A stretch of DNA of 32,000 bases from Planctopirus limnophila DSM 3776 (GCF_000092105.1 NC_014148.1:4800001-4832000); one strand, 5' to 3'. Shown: positions 6,807-31,115, numbered from the stretch's first letter. A program made the numbers and translations. Notes: generated by a model from the letters alone, not told the origin.

Positions 6807-9758
6807 CTAACCACTTCCACCGGCGGACGTAGCCTGGTTGACATCCAGCTTGCCTGTGGTGGGGTTAAACTCGATGCGTTTGGCTGTTTGAGGTACGCCG
6901 CCTCCCGGGCCTTCGCGCCAGATCGTGGCTTCACGATTGCCAATGGCTTTAAGAATGAACAGTCCCTTCGACTGATCGTAGCTCACCTGATCGGCCCGGG
7001 CATGAAAGCCGTTGCCTTCAAGGATCGTGTTGCCATTGGCGAACAGTTCCATCCATGGTTTCTGGCCGGAATTCGCCGCACTCTCCAGCGGCTGACGCTG
7101 GATAAGTTCCAGACTGTCGCAACGCATCGAGCCGGCATTTTTGGTCAATTGATCGGGATGAATCGTCGCGACAGAGGTATCGACGGGCCCGTGAACCACT
7201 TGAACTCGATCATGGAAGGTCGTGCCGCGTGATTCGATGTTTCCGATCATTTTGCCATTAAAATCGACACTGGTGTAATCCCACGGGCTCTGGTCCGCTG
7301 TGAGTGGCCGGTTGGCGCGGGCGGATGAGGCAGAAGCTTGCTGGATCGTCGATTCCGGCTCGCGGCGCCAGATCTGTAATTTCCCTTTGCCAATCGCACT
7401 GGCGGCACCAGTCGCCGGTTCCAGCCTCAACTGCCAGACATTGGCCCGGCGAATCTGCGTGAGCAGGCCCTGCTTACGTTCGTAACTTTCCAGACGCACA
7501 CCATCCTTACACAGAATCACCGCCAGATCGGTTTTTGGTTGCTGGCCTTGCTGCTGCGCGAACAGGATGCGCTGCGTCAGTTCGACTTCCATCTGCTGAC
7601 AATTCATCCGGTGGTTATTGATCGCCTCGGGAGTGTGGCTCGCAAAACTGGCGAAGATGTTTCCATCGAAGGAGGCTTTACGGCCATCGAAGATCATTTT
7701 TTCCTGCCACGAGATATCCAGAATTTCGGGCTGCGCCATCAATTGACCCGAAGTATCTTTTTCGATGGGTAACTGAATATTTCCTGCCCCATCGACCCAG
7801 GCCAGATTCTCAGTGCGATCGAGGTGCACGGCTGGCCCGCGAATGAGCATACCACTATCACGAATCTCTGCGGGAGAGCCGTAAACGTGCACGACTTGCC
7901 GGGCTTCGCCTTCGTTTTTGAGATGAAGCTTCTGTCCGCGCAGATCGAGAGGTGGCTTGTTATCAATGCGTGCCTGGCTGAGCTGAAAATCTTTCTCCGT
8001 CCAGACATCGCTCACCATGGGCTCGCCCGTTTTCAGATCGGGCTTCATGAGCACCTTCAAATGTCCGGCTTTCATGCGAAATGGCTTCGAGTTGGCACCA
8101 GATGATGGAGTGCCTGACGCGGGAAGCATCCCTTCCGAACTGTTACCAGCAGACTTTTGGCTTTCTGGTTTCTTTTCACCTGGCTGACGATTGAAGTCGC
8201 CCTCGAAATCGACCAGTAACGTCTCGGCTTCGGCTTCGAGTTGAGGCGAAAGCATGGCGACGTTCTTTTCCGCGAGGAGACGACGGGGCTGAATATTCAA
8301 AGCGTCCGGCTGTAAATTGCCACTCTGTTGGCTCGCCACTGAAGGCGCGGGCCTGCCGGGAGCCAGGCTGAGAGGTGTGACCCAGACACGGATCTGGTCG
8401 GCACCCAGAGCGGTTTTCTGGCCTGGCTGTCGGAAGGACGCCTGATTATTCAGTTCGATGACATCGAGCCGGGTTTCGGGATCGGCAAATTTTCTGAGGT
8501 GAGTTTTCCAGCCGGCGGCGTATTGAATGAGTTGTGTCGCTGGGTCGCGAGTTTCGAGTACGCCTGGCCCTGCGCAGAGAATGTCGCCAATAGTGTCTGC
8601 CTCGCCAATGGCGATCTGCACGCCGGGCGACTGCAATCGATTTTCGCCATGCCAGAGCTGCACCCCTTTGGGATCACTCATCACAAGAATGCGATCGACG
8701 GCGTTGTAAACGAGAGAAGTCATCTCGCCTTTGAAGTTCTGCTGAGTCGAAACGGTGCGGACCAGTCGTCCTTCGGCCTTGAGTGATGCAAATCTCAGAT
8801 CGGTGCGGATCCTGCGGAACTCGGCCTCTTCGGGCTTCGCTGTGGGGGGAGCAGGGACTTGCGACACGTCCTCTGGCTTTCGGGGAACAAAGCCGAGAGT
8901 GAGCCGTTCGCAGCGCAGCCAGTCTGTCTGTCCGGCCACGGGTTCGCGATAAACAAGCACGTCGTCTTTCTGCGCACGCTCGGCTTCGAAGATGGCCACT
9001 TCATCTTCGACCAGATACTCGAAGCTGCCTGCGGTTTTGATGTGCAGAGGAAGTGGTTCCTGCTTGTTCTTGAGCACCACTTCCATTTTGACATTCCGCC
9101 GGAGCCTGACACTTTTGAGACCGATAATGGCGGGTCGATCAGAGTGCATGGTGTATTCAGCGGGGATCAGCTCGGCCTGCAACTGACCGGCAGTCCCACG
9201 ATGAGGCCCCAGGGCAAACGAAACCGGGTGATCGCTGTACATGCGAGCTGCCGATTCCGACAGATAAAAGTTGCGCCCCTTGATCATCAGCCCTTCCGGG
9301 CCAGCTACAGAGACCTCGCCTTCCAGCGCACCGGCGATAATACGCCCCGGGTTTGGTGAGCGGACATCGAATTGCGAGGCAAACTTAAGCAGTGCCGATT
9401 CTGCGACCAGTGTAGTGATCTGCGTTTTCCCTTTACGCTCATTGACCATCACCATGGCGAGTGGACGAAAGCGAATTTCGCCTCGATTTCCTTCCGGCAT
9501 CCACTCGTTGGCATACAGGTAGGTATGATCCGAGCGAATCTGATACTGAGAATCGATCGCCCAGGGGACATGCGGCAGATGTTCGCGGGCAATGCGTACG
9601 TTCTCGGCACTGCTGGAGAGACGTTCGTGGGGTTCCGCGACCGCTATGGTGACCTGTCTCTCGGGACGGGCCAGGAGCCAGCCACTCGCCACGCGATAGG
9701 CCATAAAGAGGCCCAACAGGCCCGATACGACAGTCCCTGTCAGCATCAGTCGCTTCAT
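6807..9758 (-). CDS. Large N-terminally anchored periplasmic protein, possibly a multi-module OstA/LptC-LptA-like protein
   Basis: 983 aa. N-terminal TM helix LTGTVVSGLLGLFMAY. The start ATG overlaps the kdsD stop (ATGA at 9755-9758). The C-terminal segment NGNTILEGNGFHARADQVSYDQSKGLFILKAIGNREATIW resembles the GNV..L.....A..I.YD motif of OstA/LptA modules. The domain call is by eye only. Confidence 0.45.
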   Translation of the reverse strand: MKRLMLTGTVVSGLLGLFMAYRVASGWLLARPERQVTIAVAEPHERLSSSAENVRIAREHLPHVPWAIDSQYQIRSDHTYLYANEWMPEGNRGEIRFRPLAMVMVNERKGKTQITTLVAESALLKFASQFDVRSPNPGRIIAGALEGEVSVAGPEGLMIKGRNFYLSESAARMYSDHPVSFALGPHRGTAGQLQAELIPAEYTMHSDRPAIIGLKSVRLRRNVKMEVVLKNKQEPLPLHIKTAGSFEYLVEDEVAIFEAERAQKDDVLVYREPVAGQTDWLRCERLTLGFVPRKPEDVSQVPAPPTAKPEEAEFRRIRTDLRFASLKAEGRLVRTVSTQQNFKGEMTSLVYNAVDRILVMSDPKGVQLWHGENRLQSPGVQIAIGEADTIGDILCAGPGVLETRDPATQLIQYAAGWKTHLRKFADPETRLDVIELNNQASFRQPGQKTALGADQIRVWVTPLSLAPGRPAPSVASQQSGNLQPDALNIQPRRLLAEKNVAMLSPQLEAEAETLLVDFEGDFNRQPGEKKPESQKSAGNSSEGMLPASGTPSSGANSKPFRMKAGHLKVLMKPDLKTGEPMVSDVWTEKDFQLSQARIDNKPPLDLRGQKLHLKNEGEARQVVHVYGSPAEIRDSGMLIRGPAVHLDRTENLAWVDGAGNIQLPIEKDTSGQLMAQPEILDISWQEKMIFDGRKASFDGNIFASFASHTPEAINNHRMNCQQMEVELTQRILFAQQQGQQPKTDLAVILCKDGVRLESYERKQGLLTQIRRANVWQLRLEPATGAASAIGKGKLQIWRREPESTIQQASASSARANRPLTADQSPWDYTSVDFNGKMIGNIESRGTTFHDRVQVVHGPVDTSVATIHPDQLTKNAGSMRCDSLELIQRQPLESAANSGQKPWMELFANGNTILEGNGFHARADQVSYDQSKGLFILKAIGNREATIWREGPGGGVPQTAKRIEFNPTTGKLDVNQATSAGGSG

Positions 9759-11208: not shown

Positions 11209-12465
11209 TTAGCGCTGCAGGCTCTGGCCAATCAATGAAAGTGCTCGAATATGGCGTGCCGCTTCGCGATGGCCCAGCCGGGGTGTCATCGCAGCGATCT
11301 CGGCCTGATGGATCGCTTCCAGTGCCTGATCGACCTGTTGAGCATCATTCTGTAAGCGACTCGACAGGCGGCGTTTGCGACCGGAAGCTTCCTGCAGTCG
11401 ATATTCCGTCAGCCAGTACCTTAAATACTGAAATAGCACGAACTGGCAATCCGCTGATCGCCAGAGAATTCGCCCCAGAGCACTGGTGTGTTCGACGATT
11501 TCCCGCTGAGACGTTTCTTCGAGAACAACCGTGGGCCCGAACCGGCAACTGTTCCACCAGCCATAGAGCATGAACAGCAGCAGAATCTGCACGGAAATCG
11601 AACGCAGTGGCGGCTGAAACAAGACACCCATCATCTGGGGTGTCGCCCGGGTATTGAGAGATTCATCAAAAGCGATGACGACATCGTCCAGGCTTTGCCC
11701 CGGCCCGGCAGCTTCGCGAATCAGTTCAAAAGCCAGAGCACTGTTATCGCCATAGGTCAGAAGCTGGTTGGAAAAGATCCACGGGCTGGCAACAAAAAGA
11801 GCCGACCCTCGCCCCGCATTCACCATGACAGCCTGAGGCGAGCCATCCTGAGAAACAAGCACCTTTCCGCCGGGAGTCGATGTCACTTCCCCTTCCGGCC
11901 ACCACAGAAACCGGCCTCCTAAGGGGAGGTTCAACTGCGGTGGAATGCGGTCGTCAGCCGGGCCTTGTTCGGGCGTGATTTCGCCATCGAATGGGCCCAA
12001 AGAGTCGACTTCACCCGGAGGAGGCGCATAGACCAGGCGACCACCCATGTTGACCCACGAATAGAGGCTGTTCCACTCGGCTTCATTCGGAATTCGCGGC
12101 GGGTTCAAAATCAACAAGAGTGTGCCATCGGGGTCAACCAGTTCCATCAGTCGATCCAGTGGTGCATCGTTGCGATAGACAAAAGCATCCTGTTCGAGAA
12201 TCTCGTACAACGCCTTAAAACCATCGGCAGAAGCACTGTAACTCGTCGCAGTTCGAGGAGCAGGAATCGGGGGGAAGTAAAAGTGCATACCCAGCACAAC
12301 GGCTGCCAACGAACCCCAGATCAGACTGGGTATCAACCACTGCTGCTGCTTCCACGCGGGTTTTCGAGTCCCCTTTGTCAGAAGGGGAGCAGTTGCCGAC
12401 CGGTTCTGAGGGTTCATTGTCCCAGGGGGAGCGCCTGCCGATCGATCCGCAGGAAATCGACTCAT
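11209..12465 (-). CDS. DUF4350 domain protein
   Basis: 418 aa. N-terminal TM helix. The segment FKALYEILEQDAFVYRNDAPLDRLMELVDPDGTLLLILNPP...EWNSLYSWVNMGGRLVY matches the DUF4350 pattern as I recall it. The ATG overlaps the upstream stop (ATGA at 12462-12465). Confidence 0.6.
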   Translation of the reverse strand: MSRFPADRSAGAPPGTMNPQNRSATAPLLTKGTRKPAWKQQQWLIPSLIWGSLAAVVLGMHFYFPPIPAPRTATSYSASADGFKALYEILEQDAFVYRNDAPLDRLMELVDPDGTLLLILNPPRIPNEAEWNSLYSWVNMGGRLVYAPPPGEVDSLGPFDGEITPEQGPADDRIPPQLNLPLGGRFLWWPEGEVTSTPGGKVLVSQDGSPQAVMVNAGRGSALFVASPWIFSNQLLTYGDNSALAFELIREAAGPGQSLDDVVIAFDESLNTRATPQMMGVLFQPPLRSISVQILLLFMLYGWWNSCRFGPTVVLEETSQREIVEHTSALGRILWRSADCQFVLFQYLRYWLTEYRLQEASGRKRRLSSRLQNDAQQVDQALEAIHQAEIAAMTPRLGHREAARHIRALSLIGQSLQR

Positions 12466-14378
12466 AAGCCTTCTCCTGTGCGGAGAGCTGCTGGGAGGGA
12501 TTCGTTGCGAATCAGCGGTTCAAAAGTGCTGGCATAAGCAGTGCGGGCGGCCAGCCAGGCCTCGGCTGTGTGAGGTTGCCTGCCGAACTCGAGTGGTTCA
12601 AAAACTCGCACAATGGCTGAGAATCCGTGCGAAAGATCGGTTTCAAATCCCATGGCCCGCTGATAGTCGCGGAGAGTCAAACCCCGTCGATAACGCACCA
12701 GGCCCGATCGTTCGGCGAAACTCATCCCGCTGAGAAGTAATTGGGCAATCGCATCGCGATAACGACCCAGCCCTGCCAGTTCGTCAGCCCGGGCCAGGTA
12801 GATATCAGCCGGGATGAGGCCAGGCTCAGAAAGAATTTCACCTTCTTCAAGGGCTGTCGTATTTGCGTCGGTGAACTCCAGTTCTCGGGAACGTAGAGAG
12901 GCCATAATCGACATGACAATTGCGATAATAATGGCCGCGACGACGACCGCCACGATGAGATAGGCCAGAAAAGTTCCGACGGCCCCCAGCCCGAGTAGAG
13001 AACTCAGATCCAGAGAGGGTGCGTTCATCCCGGAGGAAGGTGTGGCGGGTTCCGAAGGAGAAGAGCTTTTGGATGACGAAGGTTGACTCTGCGAACTGGA
13101 GGATTCACTCCCCTTGGAACTGGCACGTGATTTCGATCGCTGGACCTTTTTTTCTGTGCCATCGCCAGAACCCTTCTTTGAAGAACGCATGGAACCTGGC
13201 AAGGTGCGGGAACTGCTGGTATCGCTGTTAGACGAGCGGGATCTGGGAGGTAATAACGATTCCCGAGACTGTTCAACGCCTTCAACATCGTCGGCATTGA
13301 AGTGCTCGAAGTAACGGTACTCCGGTTGTTCGAGTGTTTTCCGCGCCTGAGGAACAACGGGGTGACTGGGAACTTGAACTGCATCGGCAGCGCGGGCCGA
13401 TAGCGGTGCATTTCCCAGTATCAGCGAAAGTAATCCCAATGTCGCCAGAGCCAACAGGCCCACGCGTAAAGGCCTGGGCGTCGATTTCCGGCGAATGTCG
13501 TGAGCCGCCTGGTTCATCGCCAGTTCGAGATCCCAGCAGTCTTCGCGGACACGTAGATTGATATATTCACCCACCCAGGCGAGACGACCCAGCGAAAAAG
13601 CCGCCAGTACGCACAACGTAGCTGCAAAGAGCAGTCGAGGATCGGTCGTGAGAAACAACGTCGAGATCTCCCAATACTCTTCGGGGACAGCATCGATGGC
13701 TGCTAATCCCTGATTCATTTTCAGCAGTGGCCCCAGGCAGAACGAAGCACCAAACCAGACTTCCGCCAGAACATCTGCAGAGATCAGGAGCACGATCGAC
13801 AGGCAGAAGATCCAGATCCCCAGACCAAAGGCATTGACCACGAGATCGGAATGATGCGAGCTGATCAGCTTCTTCAGATGGTGTTCGTGTCCACTTTTCC
13901 GCCGCGACCGCAACGCATGATTTTCGGGTTGAAAAGTGAAATGGACAGCAGCCACCAGGCTGCCAATACCACACATCAAAAGACCCGCCAGTGCAGCCAT
14001 CCGGCGGAGAATTGACATCACAATGAGCTTGGAACGGACTTGTCGTAACGCCTCTCGATAGGTGGTGGCATTTCCCATTAGTAAAGCCGTCATGGTGGTG
14101 GCAATGACGGCACCCAATGGGCCCGAAACCAGCACCCAGAGAACCGGGGCGCACCACGCCAGGCGATAATCAATCATCGACAACCCGGCAATCGCACATG
14201 CCGTGGGCAAGGCCATGGCCAGGTAGGTCAGAATCAAACCTTTCCACTGCCAGCGGAGAGCATGGAAGGCCAGATCGATCGAGTTCAGCAGCGAGAGGCC
14301 ACGCAGATCGACCTGAGGGACTGCGGCTGGCTCTCGTCGATCCGAAGAAGCGGCATCAAGGGTTGGCTTCTGGTTCAT
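12462..14378 (-). CDS. Polytopic membrane protein with a C-terminal DUF4129 domain
   Basis: Multiple N-terminal hydrophobic segments. Central Ser/Lys-rich low-complexity linker (SSNSDTSSS...SESSSSQSQPSSSKSSSPS). One further TM helix. C-terminal DUF4129-like region ADIYLARADELAGLGRYRDAIAQLLLSGM...LTLRDYQRAM...FEPLEFGRQP. I prefer the start at the ATG at 14378, which gives an ATGA overlap with the upstream stop. The track ORF starts at 14426. Confidence 0.6.
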   Translation of the reverse strand: MNQKPTLDAASSDRREPAAVPQVDLRGLSLLNSIDLAFHALRWQWKGLILTYLAMALPTACAIAGLSMIDYRLAWCAPVLWVLVSGPLGAVIATTMTALLMGNATTYREALRQVRSKLIVMSILRRMAALAGLLMCGIGSLVAAVHFTFQPENHALRSRRKSGHEHHLKKLISSHHSDLVVNAFGLGIWIFCLSIVLLISADVLAEVWFGASFCLGPLLKMNQGLAAIDAVPEEYWEISTLFLTTDPRLLFAATLCVLAAFSLGRLAWVGEYINLRVREDCWDLELAMNQAAHDIRRKSTPRPLRVGLLALATLGLLSLILGNAPLSARAADAVQVPSHPVVPQARKTLEQPEYRYFEHFNADDVEGVEQSRESLLPPRSRSSNSDTSSSRTLPGSMRSSKKGSGDGTEKKVQRSKSRASSKGSESSSSQSQPSSSKSSSPSEPATPSSGMNAPSLDLSSLLGLGAVGTFLAYLIVAVVVAAIIIAIVMSIMASLRSRELEFTDANTTALEEGEILSEPGLIPADIYLARADELAGLGRYRDAIAQLLLSGMSFAERSGLVRYRRGLTLRDYQRAMGFETDLSHGFSAIVRVFEPLEFGRQPHTAEAWLAARTAYASTFEPLIRNESLPAALRTGEGL

Positions 14379-15373
14379 GTGCGCTCCCTGCCTGACCAGC
14401 CCAGGTACATGGCGACGCTGAACCACAGAAATCCACCCACCAGAAATTTGTATTCCGATGGAATCGGAGCAGGTGACCAGAACGCTTCAATGAGTGCCGC
14501 CACCACCAGCATGAAGGCTGCTCCTACGGCCATTTGCCCGGCATCTCTCCCTCGCAAACGCAGTGCCGACCAGCGTGACAACTGGCCCGGATGAAGTGCT
14601 GCATCTCCCACAAGCAGCCCGGCCCCACCAGCAATCGCAATCGCTGTTAATTCAAATGAGCCGTGAGAAACGACAAAGCCCAGAAAGCGATCGGCATGAC
14701 CGAGCGAAAGGACATAACCAGCCGTGGCTCCAATCGAAATGCCATTAAAAAGCAGCGTGTAGATCGTCCCAATGCCCAGGAGAATCCCGCGGGCAAAACA
14801 TTGCAGGGCAATCCCAACGTTATGCTGGACATAGAAGCCAGCCATCGAAGCCCGCTCGTTGCCGTAATCGTTCCACGAATCAAACGAGAAGGCCGTCTCG
14901 TCGAGAGAGGCTGAATCTTCGCTCGAGTACATCATGTCGTACTGATCGAGCGCTTCCTGCGACATGAAACGTGCTGCCAGTGGGGGCTCATTCTGAATCA
15001 GAATCCAACTGATGATCAGCGGCCCAAAGAACAGAAGAGCGGCCAGCAGTTGATAGCCCCACCAGGTGCGGAAGATGCGGGGAAACTCCATGAACAGAAA
15101 CTGACCGATGGTATGCCACGTTCCCGCGCGAGGGGCGTGGAAATAATCATGCCCCCTAGCCAACAGCCGGTTCAGATATTCTTCGAGATCAAGGCCCCAG
15201 TCGCGTGTCCGTACCAGTTCGAGATCGTGGGCGACTTCGCGCAGTTGACGCGAAAAGGCCAGCACTTCCTCAGACGAGAGCCGCCGCTGGTTGACGGTTT
15301 CGACACGTCTGAGCGATTTTTCGAAGTTTTGCCAGGCCGGTTTTCGCTGGGCCAGAAAAGTGGCTCGCTTCAC
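14375..15373 (-). CDS. Stage II sporulation protein M-like (SpoIIM/DUF95) integral membrane protein
   Basis: 332 aa. A soluble helical N-terminus (RKPAWQNFEKSLRRVE...) is followed by about 5-6 hydrophobic segments, the usual layout for this family in RDD/DUF4129/DUF4350 clusters. The GTG start overlaps the RDD gene stop (GTGA at 15370-15373). Confidence 0.55.
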   Translation of the reverse strand: MKRATFLAQRKPAWQNFEKSLRRVETVNQRRLSSEEVLAFSRQLREVAHDLELVRTRDWGLDLEEYLNRLLARGHDYFHAPRAGTWHTIGQFLFMEFPRIFRTWWGYQLLAALLFFGPLIISWILIQNEPPLAARFMSQEALDQYDMMYSSEDSASLDETAFSFDSWNDYGNERASMAGFYVQHNVGIALQCFARGILLGIGTIYTLLFNGISIGATAGYVLSLGHADRFLGFVVSHGSFELTAIAIAGGAGLLVGDAALHPGQLSRWSALRLRGRDAGQMAVGAAFMLVVAALIEAFWSPAPIPSEYKFLVGGFLWFSVAMYLGWSGRERT

Positions 15374-16230
15374 ATGAGCCTCGCTTTCGCAGGCGTGATG
15401 ACGGCCGCTTTCTCATCTCGTGCGGTTTGAAATGTAGCACAGACCCGGGCGAGAAAGGCCATCGGGAACTTGCGCACCTGTTCGCGGTCACCGGTGAATT
15501 CCATCCGCTCTGCCAGAGTATCCGCCAGTTCGGAAGCCAGCTGATGCCCCCGCTGATAAGTCAGTTTGGAACGTCGCCCGAGAAACTCGGCAATCGTCGA
15601 CAATTGCGCCTGAGTGGGGGTAAAGCCATTCGATTCGTACCGGGTGATCGGGGCAATATGGTCGAGGATCATCGGTTGTTTCGGCAGGACAATCGGGTGA
15701 ACCTGCACGACCATTGTTCCCGCAGCGAGATCGCCCAGCCTTTGGAACTTTTGGGTCATCGACATGGCCAGAAGCCCCGGGCCATAGAAAGGGAGAATTC
15801 CGAGCCAGGCCACATCCTCAAACACCATGGCAATAGGCAGCATGTCGGCCACACGTAAAAGATTCCGCAGAACAGCCCCCCAGAAGGTGAGTGGTGCTCC
15901 CGAGGTATGAATCACCCGGATCCCTACCAGCCATTTGCCCATCGAATAGCCATTCCAGAAGCCTTCCTGAACGATGTAGTACAGCCACTCGATAAAGAAG
16001 AGTGCCAGCAGGATGCCACCAATTGTGAACCCGGGCAGGATGGCAGCCATTAGACAGGCACCGATCAGAAGTGCTGTGATGAGCAACACGCGGAAGAGGC
16101 AGTCGATGGCGTAGGCCGCACTGCGCAGGGCTGGGCCTGCCAGTTGGTAGGCGAGCCGGACATTTTCCGGCGTCTCGATACGAACATTCAAACTGACTTC
16201 AGCAGCCACACAGATTCTCCCGGGAAACAT
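15370..16230 (-). CDS. RDD family membrane protein
   Basis: 286 aa. The pattern R..AYAIDCLF ... GYSMGKWLVGIRV ... RLGDLAAGTMVV fits the R-D-D signature, with three hydrophobic segments. Confidence 0.65.
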   Translation of the reverse strand: MFPGRICVAAEVSLNVRIETPENVRLAYQLAGPALRSAAYAIDCLFRVLLITALLIGACLMAAILPGFTIGGILLALFFIEWLYYIVQEGFWNGYSMGKWLVGIRVIHTSGAPLTFWGAVLRNLLRVADMLPIAMVFEDVAWLGILPFYGPGLLAMSMTQKFQRLGDLAAGTMVVQVHPIVLPKQPMILDHIAPITRYESNGFTPTQAQLSTIAEFLGRRSKLTYQRGHQLASELADTLAERMEFTGDREQVRKFPMAFLARVCATFQTARDEKAAVITPAKARLM

Positions 16231-22397: not shown

Positions 22398-23330
<933 letters not shown>

Positions 23331-23467
23331 GCAACCCCGGCTACAAAGCCTGTGGCCACTGGCCTGTCTTCTTTGAAAATCATCGAGGGCAGGCATTCAG
23401 GGATGGCCCGTGAATGCGTTTGGGATTTTCTCTTTATCATCATCAGTTTTCTACGGCGTAATCGAAT

Positions 23468-25111
23468 ATGGACTTCCTTCCGGATCCCTTTCCGCTGCTC
23501 TCGGCCTTCTTGCAATGGCTGGCTGTGATCGCGGTCATTTTTTCGAGCGTCCTGCTCATCACCTTCACCTCGAATCTGGTTTCAAACGGTGCCGCAGGTG
23601 CTGCCCTGTATGGCCAATCGTTGGGCCAAAGCCTTGTCGAGATTTTTTCGACCTCTGTTTCTCGCTGCTACGCTCTGGCCAAACTGACATTTACCGAGGC
23701 CATTCGCCGCAAAGCACTCTTCGTTTTTGTGGTCTTTGCTGTCCTGTTCATGTTTGCCGGATGGTTCCTTTCGGATCCCGATCAATCCGCCAAATACGCC
23801 AAAGATGCAGTCAAAATCCACGTGACCTTTATTCTCAACGTCCTCACGTGGCTGACGATGATTGTCATGCTGCTGCTGGCCTGCATCGGCATTCCCGAAG
23901 ATATCCGGCTGCGATCCATTCACACCGTCGTGACCAAACCCGCCCGGCGATTCGAAATTGTTCTCTCGCGTATCCTGGGTTACGTCGGCGTCGGGACAGT
24001 GCTGCTGGGAATCATGTCCGCCACGTCACTGGTCTGGATTTATCGCCAGGTACCGGTATCGGCCCGTTCAGAACTCACTGCCAGACAGCCCATCTGGGGT
24101 CAGTTGAGTTTTCTTGATCGCATGGGTAACGAGACCACAGCTGGAATTAATGTGGGCGATATCTGGGACTACCGCAGCTATATCGAAGGGGCCACCAAAA
24201 GTCGGGCCATCTGGCGCTTCGAAAACGTCACTCCCGCCATGCTGACAACCATGACGGACGAAGATGGCAAAACCTACGAAGCTCTCCGGCTCGAATCCCG
24301 TATCGAAGCGTTCCGTTCTCATAAAGGGAATATGGATCGCACCACCCGCTTTCAGTACATCATCCTGAATCCCGAGCGAAATCTGGAGGTGACTGCCGCC
24401 ACTCTCGAAATTGGTGATGAATTCAGCGGCCGAACCGATGGCATTCGCCGCACGCTGATTGCCGAAACGAAAGACAATGAGTCCAAGACGGTCGACTTAA
24501 TCAACGATCTCGTCGCCAAAGATGGCAGCCTCACCATTGCCGTCGCCTGTACCGATCCCGGCCAATACCTGGGGATGGCCAGGTCAGATCTCTTCATTCG
24601 CCTTCCTGATGCACCCTTTGCAGTCACATTCTTCAAAGCCATTCTGGGGATCTGGTTATTCATGGTGCTGACTGTCACCTTAGGTGTCACAGCCAGTACG
24701 TTCGTGAAGGGCCCGTTTGCCATTATGACGATCTTCACGTTCCTGACGGTCAGCATCACTGGCCGTGAATTCATCAGGAAGCTGCTTTCTGACGAATGGA
24801 AAGGTGGTGGGGCCTTCGAATCGGCTTACCGCATCCCGACCTACATGAACGATACGACCGATCTGCCCAGCAATCCGGGCACTCAACTCATCAAGTGGGT
24901 CGACTGGATCATGAATGGGTTCTTATGGCTCATCCAGCAGATTCTCCCGAATGTCAGTTATTTCAATATGACTGGCTACGTTGCCAACGGTTTCGACGTA
25001 GATAACTGGAACACACTGCTTCCCGCAGTGCTGGTCACGATTGGCTACTTCATTCCCTGTGTACTTATCGGCTACTACTGTCTGCGTTCGCGTGAACTGG
25101 AGGCAAAATGA
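23468..25111 (+). CDS. ABC-2-type transporter permease with a large extracytoplasmic insert
   Basis: 547 aa. At least 7 hydrophobic segments. LTFTEAIRRKALF motif near the first helices, as in ABC-2/NosY/GldF-like permeases. A soluble loop of about 190 aa lies between the N- and C-terminal helix bundles. It sits directly downstream of the ATPase gene. Confidence 0.65.
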   Translation: MDFLPDPFPLLSAFLQWLAVIAVIFSSVLLITFTSNLVSNGAAGAALYGQSLGQSLVEIFSTSVSRCYALAKLTFTEAIRRKALFVFVVFAVLFMFAGWFLSDPDQSAKYAKDAVKIHVTFILNVLTWLTMIVMLLLACIGIPEDIRLRSIHTVVTKPARRFEIVLSRILGYVGVGTVLLGIMSATSLVWIYRQVPVSARSELTARQPIWGQLSFLDRMGNETTAGINVGDIWDYRSYIEGATKSRAIWRFENVTPAMLTTMTDEDGKTYEALRLESRIEAFRSHKGNMDRTTRFQYIILNPERNLEVTAATLEIGDEFSGRTDGIRRTLIAETKDNESKTVDLINDLVAKDGSLTIAVACTDPGQYLGMARSDLFIRLPDAPFAVTFFKAILGIWLFMVLTVTLGVTASTFVKGPFAIMTIFTFLTVSITGREFIRKLLSDEWKGGGAFESAYRIPTYMNDTTDLPSNPGTQLIKWVDWIMNGFLWLIQQILPNVSYFNMTGYVANGFDVDNWNTLLPAVLVTIGYFIPCVLIGYYCLRSRELEAK

Positions 25112-26463
25112 ACCAGTCCGAATCACGTAATCGAAAACTGGCCTATCTCGGCTTTATCGTCCTGCTCCTCGTTCCCATCGTTCTCCTGGGGATGCCAGGT
25201 GGTGGAAGTTCCACCCCTCCGGGTCTGCTCTCTTCGATGAGATCCAAGTTCGAACTGGGTGAATCCGATATCGGCAAGATCGATCCCACCAGTGCCGCCA
25301 TGAATATGGTGCTGCTCGGGTTTCGAGGGATTGCCGTGAACACCCTGTGGTCCAATATGGATCATTACAAGAACACGAAGAACTGGGCTCAAATGAAGTC
25401 CACGTCGGATGCCATCATCCGCTTGCAGCCGCACTTCATCTCAGTCTGGCGATTCACCAGCTGGAACCTCGCCTTCAATGTGAGTGCCGAATGGGACAGC
25501 GTCAAAGATCGCTTCCACTGGGTGAAGGAAGGGGCCAAATTTCTGCAGAACGGGATTGATATCAACGCCAAGAATCCCGATCTCGCCTGGGAAGAAGGCC
25601 GGATCATCGGCTTCAAAATTGGTATGTCCGACGAAGCCCGCTACTTCCGCAAGTTCTTCAAGAACGATCCGGACACCGAACTTTACAAAGGCGGGCCCGA
25701 TCCGAAACTCAACGAACAGGGGCTCGATAACTATCTCGTCGCCCGTGACTGGTATCTGAAGGCCAACGATCGCGAACTCAATCAGCGCCAGCGCATTCTT
25801 GACCGGACTCTCTTCCGGTCTTATCCCGCACGCTCGTACTTCGACTATGCCGCCGCTCTGCAAAAAGACGGCGTCTTCGGCGAGCAGACACGCGTGGCCT
25901 GGGATGATGCCTATCGCGACTGGACAACGAAGTTCGGCCGGGAAGTCTTCTACGTTCCCGAAGTCCCCGAAGTCGGCATGTCGATGGAAATGACTGAGGA
26001 CGATATCAGCCGACAGGCCAAGACGGGCGACGAAGAACGCCGGCTTCGTAAAGCCGTCGATGACTATCAGAAAATCTGCAACTATCGCTACTGGCGAGAA
26101 CGTGCCCGTTGTGAACGTGAACCGCAGATGGCTGATGCTCACCGGGAAATCTACGAAGCACAGGTTGCTTACAGCGAACAGCGTTTGACGGAAGCGAAAG
26201 CCCTCGTGGAATCGGGCATGAAGAATTTCGCGGCCATGCTCAAGAAGTATCCCGACCTGCTGCAATACGATGACCTGCTGCTCGAAGACGCACTGACTGC
26301 AGTGCTCATGTGGCAGTACATTCTCAAACTCAGTGGCGAAACTCCCACCGACGACTATCCACTGAAAGTCATCTGGGATAGCCAGCAGGGACGCATTCCG
26401 GATGTTCAGGCCCGCCTCGATCGCTGGCTGCTCGAACAGTCTCGCAACATCGACAAAAAATAA
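25108..26463 (+). CDS. Membrane-anchored hypothetical protein, translationally coupled to the ABC permease
   Basis: 451 aa. One N-terminal TM helix (LAYLGFIVLLLVPIVLLGM). The remainder is rich in W/Y/K/E/D and looks helical, and I recognise no family. The ATG overlaps the permease stop (ATGA at 25108-25111) and GGAGG lies 4 nt upstream. Confidence 0.6.
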   Translation: MNQSESRNRKLAYLGFIVLLLVPIVLLGMPGGGSSTPPGLLSSMRSKFELGESDIGKIDPTSAAMNMVLLGFRGIAVNTLWSNMDHYKNTKNWAQMKSTSDAIIRLQPHFISVWRFTSWNLAFNVSAEWDSVKDRFHWVKEGAKFLQNGIDINAKNPDLAWEEGRIIGFKIGMSDEARYFRKFFKNDPDTELYKGGPDPKLNEQGLDNYLVARDWYLKANDRELNQRQRILDRTLFRSYPARSYFDYAAALQKDGVFGEQTRVAWDDAYRDWTTKFGREVFYVPEVPEVGMSMEMTEDDISRQAKTGDEERRLRKAVDDYQKICNYRYWRERARCEREPQMADAHREIYEAQVAYSEQRLTEAKALVESGMKNFAAMLKKYPDLLQYDDLLLEDALTAVLMWQYILKLSGETPTDDYPLKVIWDSQQGRIPDVQARLDRWLLEQSRNIDKK

Positions 26464-26586: not shown

Positions 26587-27708
26587 TCAGGCGGCTGGCT
26601 TTTGGATCGCCAATTCTTCCAAGGCGGCATGAATCAGGCAGCCACGAGCCACACCAAAGGGCGAAAGCTCGGCTGATCGATATGACTCAATCGCAATCGG
26701 CCAGTCGATCTGCCGCATGGCATTTTTCAACATGGTCGGGAATCCCGTGGCGCGGCTGAGACCCCCCGCGTAGGCCAGTACCGTCGGTTGCGGGAAGTTC
26801 GCGAGTGCCACCACCTGATGCAGCCTTCGACCAGCTTCCGAAAGAACCGCCATCAGAAACTGTCGATACAGATCGGCATAACGCCCCTCGACCATCATGG
26901 AAGCATGTGCTTCATTCGATGGTGCCCGTGAGGCCTGCTCCCGATCATGTCGCGCCTTCTGAATACTCAGCAGATGACGGACATCCGCATCAATTCGATC
27001 TGTCTCCGGATTTCGCTCGTGTGGATTCATTTTCGAGCTCGACATCGTCGTGAGTTGCTCATCAATCCAGTCCCCACCACGGGGAATCACCACTCGGGCG
27101 ATTTCTCGCCCTTGATGGGCCACCGCAAATTCGGTTACAGACGCACCAAAGACAGCCGTGACTCCGCAGAAACTCTCACCCACAAGTTCTGCCAGAGTGA
27201 CCGCCAAGGCCTGACCAACAGCGACTGGCTGGTAGCCGCGCAGCTTCACCAGTTGGCAACTGTAATCGAGTTCGGGCCAGTCGAATGTGGAACTCTGGTC
27301 GTCCAGCAAGTCACCGCTCAGTGCGATCTGCGTCTCTGCCATACGCGTCGATGGCACCGTCAGACAGCAGATCTCTCCCGGCGTTTTCGCTTCAGGAAGT
27401 ACAGCATCCACCATCGCAGCCATAATCTGCCGCGAAAGTGCATCTCGCATATCGAGCTTACCGCCAGGCAACAGCGGATAAAGTGGCAGCGATCGGCTGC
27501 GTGCCAATTCCAGAGCGGCATCTCCCAGAACCACCAGATGCTCACCACAGGGGACAAACAGTCCTTCGGATCGCTCCAGTTTCTGGCGATTGGCCGGTTG
27601 ATCAGGAATCATGGCATAACTGGCGGGAAATCTCCGGGCTCGAAGCTCACGCCCATGCGCACGGACAGATCGAAAGACCGAGGTTCCAAGATCAAGACCC
27701 ATACTCAT
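26587..27708 (-). CDS. Divergent actin-fold (ASKHA superfamily; MreB/ParM/PilM/FtsA-like) protein
   Basis: 373 aa. Phosphate-1-like motif MGLDLGTSVFR at the N-terminus. IPRGGDWIDEQL compares with the MreB/FtsA ..GG(D/N).. segment. Adenosine-like motif LAYAGGLSRATGFPTMLKNAM. C-terminal PFGVARGCL. The phosphate-2 position reads AVFGASVTEFAV rather than D.G.G.TE. The ATG overlaps the upstream stop (ATGA at 27705-27708). Confidence 0.6.
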   Translation of the reverse strand: MSMGLDLGTSVFRSVRAHGRELRARRFPASYAMIPDQPANRQKLERSEGLFVPCGEHLVVLGDAALELARSRSLPLYPLLPGGKLDMRDALSRQIMAAMVDAVLPEAKTPGEICCLTVPSTRMAETQIALSGDLLDDQSSTFDWPELDYSCQLVKLRGYQPVAVGQALAVTLAELVGESFCGVTAVFGASVTEFAVAHQGREIARVVIPRGGDWIDEQLTTMSSSKMNPHERNPETDRIDADVRHLLSIQKARHDREQASRAPSNEAHASMMVEGRYADLYRQFLMAVLSEAGRRLHQVVALANFPQPTVLAYAGGLSRATGFPTMLKNAMRQIDWPIAIESYRSAELSPFGVARGCLIHAALEELAIQKPAA

Positions 27709-30035
27709 GACTTTTTTGTCCCTCGTAATTGCACAAGAGCCTGTTCAAAGGGAGCCGTCGCTCCTTTGCTGGCAGCACTCCCGGGAGGTGTTGTTCGATC
27801 TCGTGAGAGGGCATCCTGCGCCGTATCGACTCGCCGATAAACTGCCGAACTCGAATGGGAACTGCGGTTCTGGTTCGCACCCAGACTGCTTCGACGCGGC
27901 AGTTCTTCATGAGTCTCGCGATGAATCGGTCGATCTCCCATGCTGGGCTCGCGGAGCGTCCGCGAACTCTGGCTCAAGAGGAAGTGTGGCGTTTGGCCAG
28001 ATTCTTGAGAAAGAGGTGCTTCAGCCGGATCAAACCTGGCAAAGCGACGATCAGCAGGCAATTCCTGGAATCGCAACTGGCGGTTAATCCAGGCGGGTTC
28101 TTCATGCAGCTCCAGCCGGTTGTGCAACAGATCTTCAATCATCTGCTGAATCGATGCCGTCTCACTGGTCGGTAGAGTTGGCTGTTCAGGCAAAGTCCGC
28201 TCAGCGGGCAAACTTTCGCTCTCCATCGAAGCTCGTGCCATCCCTGTTCGATTGGCAGCCGGCTTCAGAATGCTTCGATAGGATTGATCTTCATCATCAA
28301 TGAGTCGTTTCTCTTCCTGCACAGAAGAATCTGCGGGTTTGAGAATCGACTGACCAACGAGTGGAGCTGGCATCTCAGCCTGCAATCTGGCCAGACTGAA
28401 ATCCTGTGCCATCTCGTGCTCTTCGCGGGCATGATTCTCTTTCACAGATTGACCATGCAGCGGGTCCAGAAATCGACCGGCCGCAAAAGCTGCTCCCATC
28501 AATCCGATCACGGTCCCCAGAATCAAAGCCATCGTGGTCAGATAGCTTCCCAATCCCTGGCTGGCAGCACTTTCGTTTTCCATGTCGGCAACCTCCGGCG
28601 GAAGTGGCGCGACCGGGATCGACGAATTGCCTGACAACGCGTTGTTTTGCGAGTAAGCAGGGATCTCTACACGGGTCGGTCCAGTGTATGAAGAACCTGC
28701 GTACGAAGACCCCGTGTACGAAGCTTCTGGCGCTGGCAGGGAAATCGGTGCAGAGGAGACCGCACTGGTCCCTGATGGTGAAGCTCCCGATTGAGAGGCC
28801 ATCGCTGCTTCGGTTCGGCCAGCCGTACCTGCAGAAATCGCCGGGAGCAGCGGAAGACTCATCCCCGATGCCGAATACCTCTCACCCGGATTTGATCCTC
28901 CGGGAAGCTGTGTCGTCTGTACCGGAATGGTCTCTCTGGGGTAGGCAGGATTCTGACTGGCCGATCGCTGAAGATCAGCCGTCAATGCATGGCCATCCAT
29001 TCCCGGGGGAGGTGGGACATCTTCGACCTGACTGCGATTTGTGCGGGGTTGTGGATAAGCCGGGTTCGCAGCCTGTCTTGGCCATGGAGCAGAAGGATTC
29101 GATGCCACCTCTCGCGGTTGACTTCCGGGAACATAGGGTTCACCCAGTGGCTCTGTTCGACCAACACCAATCTCAGCCTGCTGGAGCAGAGCCAGATTGG
29201 CTTCTTCAGTGGTCTGGTTCGATGAGGGAGTGCGCAACATGGCAGTCGGAGTGATCTGAGGATCCCGTTGAGGCCCAGCGACATTGGTTGTGGTGGTTCC
29301 TGCGTTCGCCACCCACTCGCGAACTGGTGGAAACTCAGGCAATTGAGCAGGATTGATCGAGCCCGGTGCAAAGATCAGCAAAGCGGTCTGCGGGATCGTC
29401 TGATCGACGTGTTCAATCCTCGCTGGAGAAAGGACTTTGACATTTCGTGATAACTCAGGAGGTTGCCCCAGCATTGCACAAATACTGCTGACACTGGCCT
29501 GCTGAGTTTTGACGCGCACGACAATCGGTCTGGGAAGTACACCCAGAAGAACCAGTTGCACTCCATTTTGCTCGATTCTGGCTGCATCGGGTGGTGCGTA
29601 GTCTGGCAGGTTTTCCGCGATGATCACATCACCAGCCTCTAATGACGTCGCCCCTGCGGGATGGTAGTACACCCGTTGATCGGGCCTCGATTTTCGAATC
29701 ACGCGCAAACTGGGCGATGCTGTCGGGTTCAGGCCACCTGCCTGTGCCACCAACTGTTCGATGGTCGCGACTCGATTCTGTGAATCCGCACCGGCGGGGA
29801 GGCGGTAAACACCAGGTTGTGAGACTTCGCCAACCACAGCCACGAACATCTCTTCGCGAACGGTTGTCTGGAAGTTGATGATACGAGGCGACGATGGACG
29901 AGACTGGGCCAAAGCCATTTCTCCCACCCAGAACAACCCCAGTACCAAGGTCGCCACTTTTGGCCACCACATAATGCTCACTCCCGCTGCAATCGTTAGT
30001 GGGCGCACAGCCGCCTTGTTTGTCATCATCGGCAC
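27705..30035 (-). CDS. Bitopic envelope protein: signal/anchor, SLBB-type beta-grasp domain(s), long Pro/Ser/Gln-rich linker, TM helix, cytoplasmic tail of about 255 aa
   Basis: 776 aa. Hydrophobic N-terminus at aa 26-43. SLBB-like motif at aa 62-142: FVAVVGEVSQPGVYRLP...TIEQLVAQAGGLNPTA...LRVIR...LEAGDVIIAENL. A second beta-grasp-like stretch at aa 158-225. Low-complexity region at aa 240-490. TM helix at aa 497-520 (nt 28476-28547), acidic before and basic after. The start is GTG at 30035 or an ATG at 30029 or 30026. Confidence 0.55.
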   Translation of the reverse strand: MPMMTNKAAVRPLTIAAGVSIMWWPKVATLVLGLFWVGEMALAQSRPSSPRIINFQTTVREEMFVAVVGEVSQPGVYRLPAGADSQNRVATIEQLVAQAGGLNPTASPSLRVIRKSRPDQRVYYHPAGATSLEAGDVIIAENLPDYAPPDAARIEQNGVQLVLLGVLPRPIVVRVKTQQASVSSICAMLGQPPELSRNVKVLSPARIEHVDQTIPQTALLIFAPGSINPAQLPEFPPVREWVANAGTTTTNVAGPQRDPQITPTAMLRTPSSNQTTEEANLALLQQAEIGVGRTEPLGEPYVPGSQPREVASNPSAPWPRQAANPAYPQPRTNRSQVEDVPPPPGMDGHALTADLQRSASQNPAYPRETIPVQTTQLPGGSNPGERYSASGMSLPLLPAISAGTAGRTEAAMASQSGASPSGTSAVSSAPISLPAPEASYTGSSYAGSSYTGPTRVEIPAYSQNNALSGNSSIPVAPLPPEVADMENESAASQGLGSYLTTMALILGTVIGLMGAAFAAGRFLDPLHGQSVKENHAREEHEMAQDFSLARLQAEMPAPLVGQSILKPADSSVQEEKRLIDDEDQSYRSILKPAANRTGMARASMESESLPAERTLPEQPTLPTSETASIQQMIEDLLHNRLELHEEPAWINRQLRFQELPADRRFARFDPAEAPLSQESGQTPHFLLSQSSRTLREPSMGDRPIHRETHEELPRRSSLGANQNRSSHSSSAVYRRVDTAQDALSRDRTTPPGSAASKGATAPFEQALVQLRGTKKS

Positions 30036-30248
30036 GACCGCGAACAGCCATCAGCGAAATGGATTCTGCAGCAGAAAATTGAACATAAGCACAGGTATTC
30101 TTCGTTCGAGTTCTTCCCAGCATCGTTTCCTCAGCAGCAGTTTCTGCCGGTTCAATCAATCAACTTTTCTCTCGTGAGATGGATATATTCACAGTTCCAA
30201 TCCATCACCGGCATTGATTCGCACTGCAGAAGGCGGTCAGGAGATCTC

Positions 30249-31115
30249 ATGAAACGCATACTGATTCAGCTCGATACCGATCCTCTGGCCAGCGTGTTTG
30301 ACCGGGTTGTCGCCGTCGATGCCGGCGTCGATGAGCTCTTCAGCTACGGAAGCGTTTCACCCGAAGCTGCCGTGGGCCTGACGCATGGGGCGATCTTTAC
30401 CCGCAAAGTGGCTGACCTGAAATCCACCGCGATCTTTGTCGGTGGCAGCGATGTTCAAGCCGGAGAAGCGGTCTACGCCAAAGTTCTGCATTCGTTCTTC
30501 GGGCCCATGCGTGTCAGTGTCATGCTCGATTCGAATGGTTCCAACACCACAGCCGCTGCAGCTGTCGCCTCTGCCGGCAAACATCTTGCACTGAAAGAGA
30601 CACAAGCGGTCATTCTGGGTGGCACCGGCCCCGTGGGATTTCGAGCAGCACAACTCCTGGCTTCTCAAGGTGCGCGTGTCAAACTGGTCTCACGTCATGC
30701 CGCCAAAGCCAGTGAAGCCTGCGTCCAACTGAAGCTGCTGGAACTTCCGGGAACCGTTTCGCCGCATGTCTCGACCAGTTTTGAGGAGACGATCGCTCTG
30801 TGTGCGGGAGCGGATCTGTTAATCGCAGCCGGTGCAGCTGGGATCGAAGTGGCAGCACTCGAAGATTTGAAAGCAACCGGAATCCGGGTGGTGGTCGATG
30901 TGAATGCCGTTCCGCCCTTGGGAGTTCGAGGCGTTGAATCCACCGATAAAGCCAAAGAGCGGGAAGGGATGATCTGTTACGGCGCACTGGGTGTCGGGAA
31001 CCTCAAGATCAAGGTTCATAGAGCAGCGATCGAAAAGCTGTTTACTTCAAATGACCTGAAGCTCGATACCCAGGCCATGCTGGAAATTGCTCGCGAATTG
31101 ACAGCATTGGCCTAG
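30249..31115 (+). CDS. NAD(P)-dependent methylene-tetrahydromethanopterin dehydrogenase (MtdA/MtdC family)
   Basis: 288 aa from the ATG at 30249, with AGGAGA 4 nt upstream. Strong resemblance to MtdA as I recall it: LIQLDTDPLASVFDRVVAVDAG, STAIFVGGSD, FFGPMRVSVMLDSNGSNTTAAAAVA, GTGPVGFRAAQLLA, DVNAVPPLG, ALGVGNLKIKVHRAAIEKLF. The track ORF starts at 30174. Confidence 0.85.
   Translation: MKRILIQLDTDPLASVFDRVVAVDAGVDELFSYGSVSPEAAVGLTHGAIFTRKVADLKSTAIFVGGSDVQAGEAVYAKVLHSFFGPMRVSVMLDSNGSNTTAAAAVASAGKHLALKETQAVILGGTGPVGFRAAQLLASQGARVKLVSRHAAKASEACVQLKLLELPGTVSPHVSTSFEETIALCAGADLLIAAGAAGIEVAALEDLKATGIRVVVDVNAVPPLGVRGVESTDKAKEREGMICYGALGVGNLKIKVHRAAIEKLFTSNDLKLDTQAMLEIARELTALA

Follow-up and report, generated by a model that had tools for sequence, protein, structure and literature searches.

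In the MreB–RodZ, PilM–PilN and FtsA–FtsN systems, a cytoplasmic actin-fold protein is tied to a single-pass membrane protein by short cytoplasmic elements, and MamK–MamJ and ParM–ParR are further cases in which an actin-fold protein is recruited by a short adaptor element. MamK and BeeR are bacterial actin homologues with solved filaments. SLBB domains, known from Wza/OPX proteins and ComEA, form rings or oligomers. Volactin (VolA, HVO_2015) of the archaeon Haloferax volcanii forms dynamic filaments which bridge the cytoplasm and contact the membrane with their tips; it promotes the rod-to-disk transition and affects cell shape, binding factors have been postulated for it, and its dynamics have been likened to those of ParM (PMC10869688). 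BeeR comes from the PVC (Planctomycetes–Verrucomicrobia–Chlamydiae) superphylum, and the paper on it describes no partner (PMC11929497). Here we analyse a gene pair of Planctopirus limnophila DSM 3776, Plim_3752 and Plim_3753, which encodes a Volactin-family actin-like protein and a membrane protein with an SLBB domain. The pair lies in a stretch of 32,000 nucleotides (GCF_000092105.1 NC_014148.1:4800001-4832000), hereafter called the window.

We consider it probable (about 0.6) that the two genes form a translationally coupled, self-contained module specific to Planctomycetota which ties a cytoplasmic actin-like scaffold to the cell envelope. A non-canonical trans-envelope module had been suggested in a first-pass annotation of the window, and the architecture of the partner protein together with the co-conservation of the pair supports this. 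The special interest of the pair had been made conditional on a planctomycete host, and the source organism is a planctomycete.

The assignment of the actin-like protein to the Volactin family was already present in databases (RefSeq WP_041402282.1). The two-gene module appears to be undescribed, and so do the motifs in the tail of the partner and the module's confinement to planctomycetes: our literature search yielded no paper dealing with volactins in bacteria or with an SLBB partner of volactin, and among the volactin papers no title or abstract treats planctomycetes or such a partner.

The gene pair and its start sites

Both genes are on the minus strand, as are all features of the pair given below. 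The downstream open reading frame (ORF), at 26587-27708, starts with ATG and encodes the 373-aa protein Plim_3752. The upstream ORF, at 27705-30035, is 776 codons long when read from a GTG, and its product is 100% identical to Plim_3753. The ORF coordinates confirm that the two genes share an ATGA start/stop overlap at 27705-27708, a geometry typical of translational coupling, as the first-pass annotation had reported. The amino acid numbering of the partner used below is that of the 776-aa ORF starting at the GTG (30035).

The start sites of both proteins deserve comment. In the NCBI annotation Plim_3753 has 755 aa and starts with the ATG at 29972, which is M22 of the longest ORF. M22 is probably the true start, rather than the GTG at 30035, because it provides a canonical signal peptide, agrees with the NCBI annotation and gives an N-terminus equivalent to those of the orthologues. 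Thus, the 776-aa product first described is indeed the longest ORF, but the protein made is likely to be one of 755 aa. For the actin-like protein, RefSeq places the start at M3 (371 aa). Of 150 homologues, 122 have the phosphate-1 Asp as their sixth residue, and the first residues follow a conserved pattern, M-[STN]-[IVM]-G-L-D-L-G; a start at M1, and with it the ATGA overlap, is therefore likely.

Co-inheritance of the two genes

We compared the pair in 15 distinct planctomycete lineages (the window plus loci L003-L007, L009-L013 and L017-L020; all homologous loci retrieved). The locus search, with a 12-sequence alignment and a narrow N-terminal pattern, recovered five genome and three metagenome loci. 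Loci were retrieved through the actin-like gene; homology searches with the partner gave mostly close orthologues from Planctopirus, along with Wza-like SLBB proteins unrelated to it. Planctopirus hydrillae and metagenome-assembled genomes of Planctomyces or other Planctomycetota are the sources of the related loci.

The partner gene is directly upstream of the actin-like gene and on the same strand in 15/15 lineages, and the 4-bp ATGA overlap is present in 13 of them. The actin-like proteins of these lineages share 28-45% identity with the window protein, except for that of L003 (79%). Recurrence of the pair in every one of the independent lineages is far beyond what would be expected by chance. 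The flanking genes are unrelated between loci, which indicates that the gene pair itself is the unit. Conservation of the pair, which the first-pass annotation had proposed to check across Planctomycetota, is strong in the lineages compared.

The two loci deviating from the overlap differ from each other. In L010, the genes are separated by a gap of 205 bp. In L013, partner and Volactin domain are fused in a single 856-aa ORF (P0099, L013:3001-5571) that holds a complete partner, with signal peptide, SLBB domain, domain 2, transmembrane helix, motif A, RxD and PHF (these elements are described below), followed by a Volactin domain that is likewise complete. There, the actin-like protein's ATG is in frame with the partner, and no other frame gives a normal C-terminus. 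The gap in L010 could be cited for the view that the two genes are simply adjacent and functionally independent. Such independence is very improbable in view of the co-occurrence in all 15 lineages within non-syntenic flanks, the 13 overlaps and the fused ORF.

Distant members of the Volactin family (21-24% identity; L008, L014 and L015) have no SLBB partner, in contrast to the planctomycete branch, where the partner is dedicated. The member at L008 lies in a phage-like context. At L014:4975-7932 and L015:185-2739, the distant Volactin genes are arranged as tandem pairs of two paralogues. The longer paralogue of L014 (P0201/P0023, approximately 640 aa) carries an N-terminal ParB-type helix-turn-helix (HTH), an observation that hints at a DNA-linked function of this branch. 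In another protein, P0183, the Volactin domain is tandemly duplicated.

The actin-like protein is a divergent volactin

Plim_3752 matches the Pfam family Volactin (PF25216) along the whole profile (positions 1-321 of 321; E-value 1.7e-48; 166.2 bits against a cutoff of 35), and it has no other Pfam match at E<=1; PilM_2, FtsA and MreB (MreB_Mbl, PF06723) are all missing. No NCBIfam match was obtained. According to precomputed annotation, 23/23 homologues carry PF25216 and no other Pfam domain. An AlphaFold model built from an alignment of 22 homologues has the ASKHA/actin fold (predicted local distance difference test, pLDDT, 85.7; predicted template-modelling score, pTM, 0.85). The full-length Volactin match and this model confirm the actin-fold landmarks noticed earlier in the 373-aa product. 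The idea that it is an unclassified orphan has to be abandoned, as RefSeq already names it a volactin ('disk-shape morphogenesis protein volactin').

The nearest solved proteins in a profile search of the PDB are BeeR (E-value 4e-8, with a match covering the C-terminal half of Plim_3752 only) and MamK (1e-7); PilM is among the weak matches (0.04). In Foldseek searches of the PDB, the template-modelling scores (TM-scores) of the model, normalized to the target, were 0.69 for MamK, 0.66 for MreB, 0.65 for BeeR and 0.63 for actin, while PilM fitted less well (0.44-0.49). The Foldseek probability was 1.0 for MamK, MreB, actin and the nucleotide-binding domain of Hsp70, and identity did not exceed 17% for any of these proteins. 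MamK and BeeR are thus the nearest solved relatives by profile and fold, at just 12-17% identity. No SLBB partner has been reported for either, and no magnetosome genes accompany the module. A full-length match to PilM, FtsA or MreB, which would have spoken against a new system, was looked for and not found: Plim_3752 belongs to none of these sequence families. A separate mreB gene, whose presence the first-pass annotation had wished to see checked, exists in P. limnophila (PMC6952346).

An exhaustive profile search yielded 1011 clusters (at 50% identity) with an E-value of 1e-3 or below; 370 of them reach 1e-30 or better, which indicates a large subfamily. Other members of the Volactin family score 250-282 bits against the Pfam model, compared with 166 for Plim_3752, so the planctomycete group can be regarded as a divergent branch of the family. 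Plim_3752 and VolA share the Pfam family over the full length and the actin/ASKHA fold. They differ in that the subfamily of Plim_3752 is bacterial and divergent, and that filaments and a role in shape are known for VolA alone. The branch is further distinguished from the rest of the family by FGAS instead of GGG in the phosphate-2 region, by a variable catalytic position and by a C-terminal -AA. The entry names of orthologues in UniProt include 'PilM-like' and 'Competence protein A'; these and 'disk-shape morphogenesis protein' contradict one another, and at least two of the three are probably misleading.

Architecture of the membrane partner

Plim_3753 begins with a probable Sec signal peptide, MWWPKVATLVLGLFWVGEMALA (aa 22-44; 29904-29972), recognized by reading of the sequence and in agreement with the NCBI start and the N-termini of the orthologues; it runs from MWWPK to ALA, with a putative cleavage site before QS. 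A periplasmic SLBB (beta-grasp) domain follows at aa ~62-143 (29607-29852). Pfam SLBB (PF10531) matches aa 65-122 with an E-value of 5.6e-8 (32.9 bits against a cutoff of 27), and partner orthologues also match Pfam SLBB or SLBB_2. Compared with the PDB, the profile of the periplasmic region found the SLBB domains of OPX/Wza proteins, ComEA and NuoF, and Foldseek matched the model of the partner to Wza (173-184 columns, across its tandem beta-grasp domains), ComEA and GfcC.

A second periplasmic domain of uncertain fold, at aa ~152-238 (29322-29582), is conserved in six orthologues. It has no Pfam and no PDB sequence match, and its hhalign alignment with the SLBB profile is co-linear but weak (probability 11.8%). 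It is plausible that domain 2 is a second, possibly degenerate, beta-grasp domain. One of the 'one or two' SLBB-like domains claimed at first is thus well founded, and the other is undemonstrated.

The periplasmic part continues with a spacer at aa 241-496 (28548-29315), low in complexity, rich in A, P, S, G, T and Q, and predicted to be disordered (pLDDT below 50). It differs in length among orthologues and cannot be aligned. This agrees with the long Pro/Ser/Gln-rich spacer described initially. The single transmembrane helix is at aa 498-520 (28476-28544; Kyte–Doolittle hydropathy 1.99; helix at 496-518 in the AlphaFold model). Acidic residues precede it, and basic residues follow it in the orthologues. 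Both the helix and its flanking charges agree with the first-pass assignment of the C-terminus to the inside. The C-terminal tail measures 256 aa, close to the earlier estimate of about 255, and 140-300 aa among orthologues.

The signal peptide and the charge pattern around the helix place the SLBB domain outside and the tail inside. On these sequence features, Plim_3753 is a type I bitopic inner-membrane protein with a periplasmic SLBB domain and a cytoplasmic tail, and this topology is the same whether the N-terminal segment is cleaved or not. The pair therefore resembles MreB–RodZ, PilM–PilN and FtsA–FtsN in joining an actin-fold protein to a single-pass protein with a periplasmic domain. 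It differs from them in the topology of the partner, which is opposite to that of RodZ, PilN and FtsN (type I, with a signal peptide and a C-terminal cytoplasmic tail), and in the presence of SLBB in place of the periplasmic domains of RodZ, PilN or the SPOR type. Beside the module there are no genes for an elongasome, a pilus or a divisome. When the partner was examined as a possible PilN- or RodZ-type protein, it proved to be neither: it has a signal peptide and a periplasmic N-terminal part and no adjacent pilOPQ, on the one hand, and no HTH, no MreB_Mbl match in its neighbour and no mreCD in the window, on the other.

By sequence and fold, the SLBB domain is like those of Wza/OPX proteins and ComEA. 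Unlike the former, the partner has no PES domain (Poly_export, PF02563, was absent from Pfam scans of the partner and its orthologues) and no outer-membrane anchor, and carries a transmembrane helix and a long cytoplasmic tail instead; the Wza-like proteins found in homology searches (P0028-P0042) all carry PF02563. Unlike ComEA, it has no HhH DNA-binding domain. The occurrence of SLBB domains in exporters of the OPX/Wza type and in ComEA is nevertheless a point in favour of the main rival explanation, according to which the pair is a static platform, PilM/PilN-like or OPX-associated, in which the SLBB domain would touch a channel of the outer membrane that transports polysaccharide, pilus or DNA. 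The UniProt names and the weak PilM profile match mentioned above point the same way. We hold this explanation to be unlikely. No Pfam match to PilM_2, FtsA or MreB accompanies the names, the structural fit of PilM is below those of MamK, MreB and BeeR, and PilN presents an N-terminal cytoplasmic peptide, the reverse of the topology seen here. The partner has no domain for polysaccharide export, and neither the window nor any other locus examined has pil, gsp, wza, wzc or com genes next to the module.

Conserved elements of the cytoplasmic tail

The tail of the partner cannot be aligned among orthologues except for four conserved elements, namely motif A, RxD, PHF and a C-terminal helix. The first two belong to a module at aa 629-669 (28029-28151), recognized by orthologue comparison, in which motif A, LLHNRLELHEE (636-646), is followed by RFD (667-669). 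The pattern [LI][LI]x[NHQD]x[LVHM]x[LIMV]xx[EQ], with the consensus LLxNxLPIxEE, occurs in 14/15 partners, compared with 13 of 7500 shuffled tails, and RxD is found exactly 20 residues downstream of motif A in 14/14 partners. AlphaFold predicts a helix at aa 629-638, at the start of the module. The constant spacing indicates a single structured binding module, as opposed to separate short motifs.

The PHF motif is at aa 697-699 (27939-27947). P697 is invariant in two orthologue alignments, and P[HQK]x, mostly PHF, is present in every partner with motif A. The C-terminal element, FEQALVQL at aa 763-770 (27726-27749), coincides with a helix predicted by AlphaFold at 763-769, which would be amphipathic. 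The corresponding pattern, [FVLI][EDTK][RQD][AIV]Lxx[LVAM] (consensus FERALxQL), occurs in 14/15 partners as opposed to 10/7500 shuffles, and in 13 of the 14 it ends 5-7 residues before the C-terminus. Only the fused protein of L013 lacks it, being degenerate at this place.

From these motifs and from the gene geometry we infer that the actin-like protein docks on the tail. The conserved elements would be docking sites which bring the actin-like protein to the inner membrane and perhaps nucleate it there, similar to the recruitment of actin-fold partners by RodZ, PilN, FtsN, MamJ and ParR. At the other end of the protein, the periplasmic SLBB part might oligomerize, as in Wza and ComEA, and/or bind a component of the wall or outer envelope, and the flexible spacer would allow the complex to span the planctomycetal periplasm, which is wide and variable. 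Such a module would link a scaffold to the envelope mechanically or spatially, most likely for the organization of cell shape, membrane architecture or the pole and budding. A role in shape or membranes fits with the archaeal volactin, whose filaments touch the membrane by their tips and influence shape (PMC10869688). A more specific version, which we put forward only tentatively as one possibility, is a planctomycete-specific trans-envelope cytoskeleton. Clustered tails of the SLBB protein would nucleate volactin-type polymers or anchor their ends, while the protein oligomerizes in the wall or outer envelope, or binds to it, by way of its long flexible spacer; the whole could shape the invaginated cytoplasmic membrane or organize the budding pole.

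Putative nucleotide-binding site and weighing of the evidence

Conservation in the actin-like subfamily was counted over 154 representatives for single residues, and over 150 members for the two termini. The phosphate-1 motif GLDLGTS (aa 4-10; 27679-27699) is well preserved, with D6 in 147/154 and G8 in 143/154. The phosphate-2 region, GVTAVFGASVTE (aa 182-193; 27130-27165), contains a conserved Gly-Ala (G188 in 149 and A189 in 128 representatives). The motif RGGDWID (aa 210-216; 27061-27081) is conserved both in the subfamily and in distant Volactin members, and in the adenosine-binding motif, AYAGGLSRATGF (aa 312-323; 26740-26775), G315 is found in 153/154 and G316 in 136/154.

Several observations weigh against the reading of the pair as an envelope-linked actin-like scaffold. 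The canonical Asp of phosphate-2 is absent from Plim_3752. The FGAS of this region aligns with DIGAG of MamK (in DIGAGTTD), and the Asp position is taken by V186. In the alignment with MamK the Gly-Ala is regular and the Asp alone is missing, so the first-pass remark that the usual Asp/Gly pattern is lacking stands for the Asp and not for the glycine part. The position of the catalytic Glu of MamK is Ala, Pro or Ser in 124/154 representatives and is Q166 in Plim_3752; it is Glu in distant Volactin members. Because the glycine loops are kept and the phosphate-2 Asp and catalytic residue are not, nucleotide binding is likely, and robust hydrolysis and dynamic instability are uncertain. The filament of the initial reading is thus hypothetical, given the residues at the catalytic position in most of the subfamily. 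The subfamily may serve as a static platform that binds nucleotide instead of forming dynamic filaments, which would suit the PilM/PilN-like or OPX-associated explanation considered above.

The best Foldseek E-values of the Plim_3752 model, moreover, are those to the nucleotide-binding domains of Hsp70. They favour a quite improbable explanation in which the protein is an Hsp70-like regulatory ATPase, that is, a nucleotide switch or chaperone-like binder of the disordered tail regulating a periplasmic protein of sensing or adhesion. A long disordered tail with short conserved motifs would also be typical of client or regulator peptides. However, the target-normalized TM-scores of MamK, MreB and BeeR are higher than those of Hsp70, the protein belongs to a family whose characterized member forms filaments, it has no substrate-binding domain, and no J-domain protein or nucleotide exchange factor is encoded nearby.

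Three further points belong on the same side of the balance. The AlphaFold model of the partner, built from a shallow alignment, has a pLDDT of 40.6 overall and is low outside the SLBB domain: the values are ~70-82 for SLBB, 54-71 (marginal) for domain 2 and below 50 for the spacer, and helices are predicted only at the transmembrane segment, 629-638 and 763-769. The L013 fusion could stem from an assembly error, an indel of 1 nt in the ATGA junction; as either a true fusion or such an error is possible, we count this locus as weak support. Finally, we found no paper mentioning Plim_3752, Plim_3753 or Plim_3754.

The subfamily also has a characteristic C-terminus. The last residue is Ala in 146/150 members; 111 end in -AA, for which about 1.3% would be expected, and 25 in -VA. 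In Plim_3752 the Ala-Ala is encoded at 26590-26595. The six distant Volactin members examined end without it. The -AA is reminiscent of an ssrA-like ClpX degron, or of a docking ligand at the C-terminus.

Genomic neighbourhood

Gene annotation of the window confirmed that it contains no pil, tad, mreCD or fts genes, and the module does not look like part of a canonical operon. The module is chromosomal and has housekeeping neighbours. No Rfam matches were obtained, nor any with PADLOC (defence) or PHROG (phage) families, and the repeats around the operon are scattered short ones in two or three copies, with no iterated centromere-like array. These results bear on a possible ParMRC-type function in DNA segregation or in a mobile element, with the upstream protein as adaptor. 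The ParB-type HTH fusions and phage-like contexts of some distant Volactin members could be cited for it, as could the likening of Haloferax volactin dynamics to ParM (PMC10869688). Domain scans of the partner found no HTH and no other DNA-binding domain, as befits a secreted or membrane protein, and with neither centromere-like repeats nor mobile-element families at these housekeeping loci, a ParMRC-type function is largely refuted and has a very slight probability.

On the other strand, 30174-31115 (+) encodes a methylene-tetrahydromethanopterin dehydrogenase (MtdA-like, Mpt_N) divergent from the module. We take this gene to be one of the tetrahydromethanopterin-linked one-carbon genes typical of planctomycetes. 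On the opposite side, a cluster at 22398-26463 (+), convergent with the actin-like gene, encodes an ABC-type ATPase (310 aa) followed by proteins of 547 and 451 aa without Pfam match, whose genes share 4 bp at 25108-25111; it looks like an uncharacterized transporter-like operon. A pair of 543/547-aa and 451-aa ORFs is also found beside the module in L003, and is not found in more distant loci.

Further away, 4872-6731 (+) encodes a 619-aa protein with weak Dynamin_N/GTPase matches (24.9 bits against a cutoff of 27), which may be a bacterial dynamin-like protein, and beside it a 983-aa ORF (6807-9758, minus strand) has no Pfam match. A co-oriented cluster at 11209-16230 (-) encodes DUF4350, DUF4129, SpoIIM-like and RDD-family membrane proteins. 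In other lineages, DUF1501 and PSCyt/PSD1 genes are present in the flanks of the module in L005, L006, L007 and L009. To our knowledge, these families are very abundant in planctomycete genomes, and their proximity is for this reason probably a coincidence. In L020 (1-2789), a FtsK/SpoIIIE gene is immediately upstream of the module.

Significance for planctomycete cell biology

Planctomycetes bud without FtsZ. In P. limnophila, the canonical mreB, ftsI and ftsW genes are dispensable (PMC6952346), and the proteins which organize shape, membranes and division in this species are consequently largely unknown. With Plim_3752, our analysis adds a second protein of actin fold in P. limnophila; its family has thus far been known only as an archaeal cell-shape factor. 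In the proposed module, this actin-like protein is paired with a dedicated envelope-spanning partner, and the pairing extends over a planctomycete subfamily of considerable size (370 clusters at E<=1e-30). The candidate docking motifs are precisely defined and P. limnophila is genetically tractable.

The conserved partner also gives a hint as to which kind of membrane anchor should be sought for the archaeal volactin. If the trans-envelope cytoskeleton outlined above is true, it would form a mechanical link between cytoplasm and envelope in organisms without FtsZ, and would provide a model for the membrane 'tip anchor' of volactin in Archaea.

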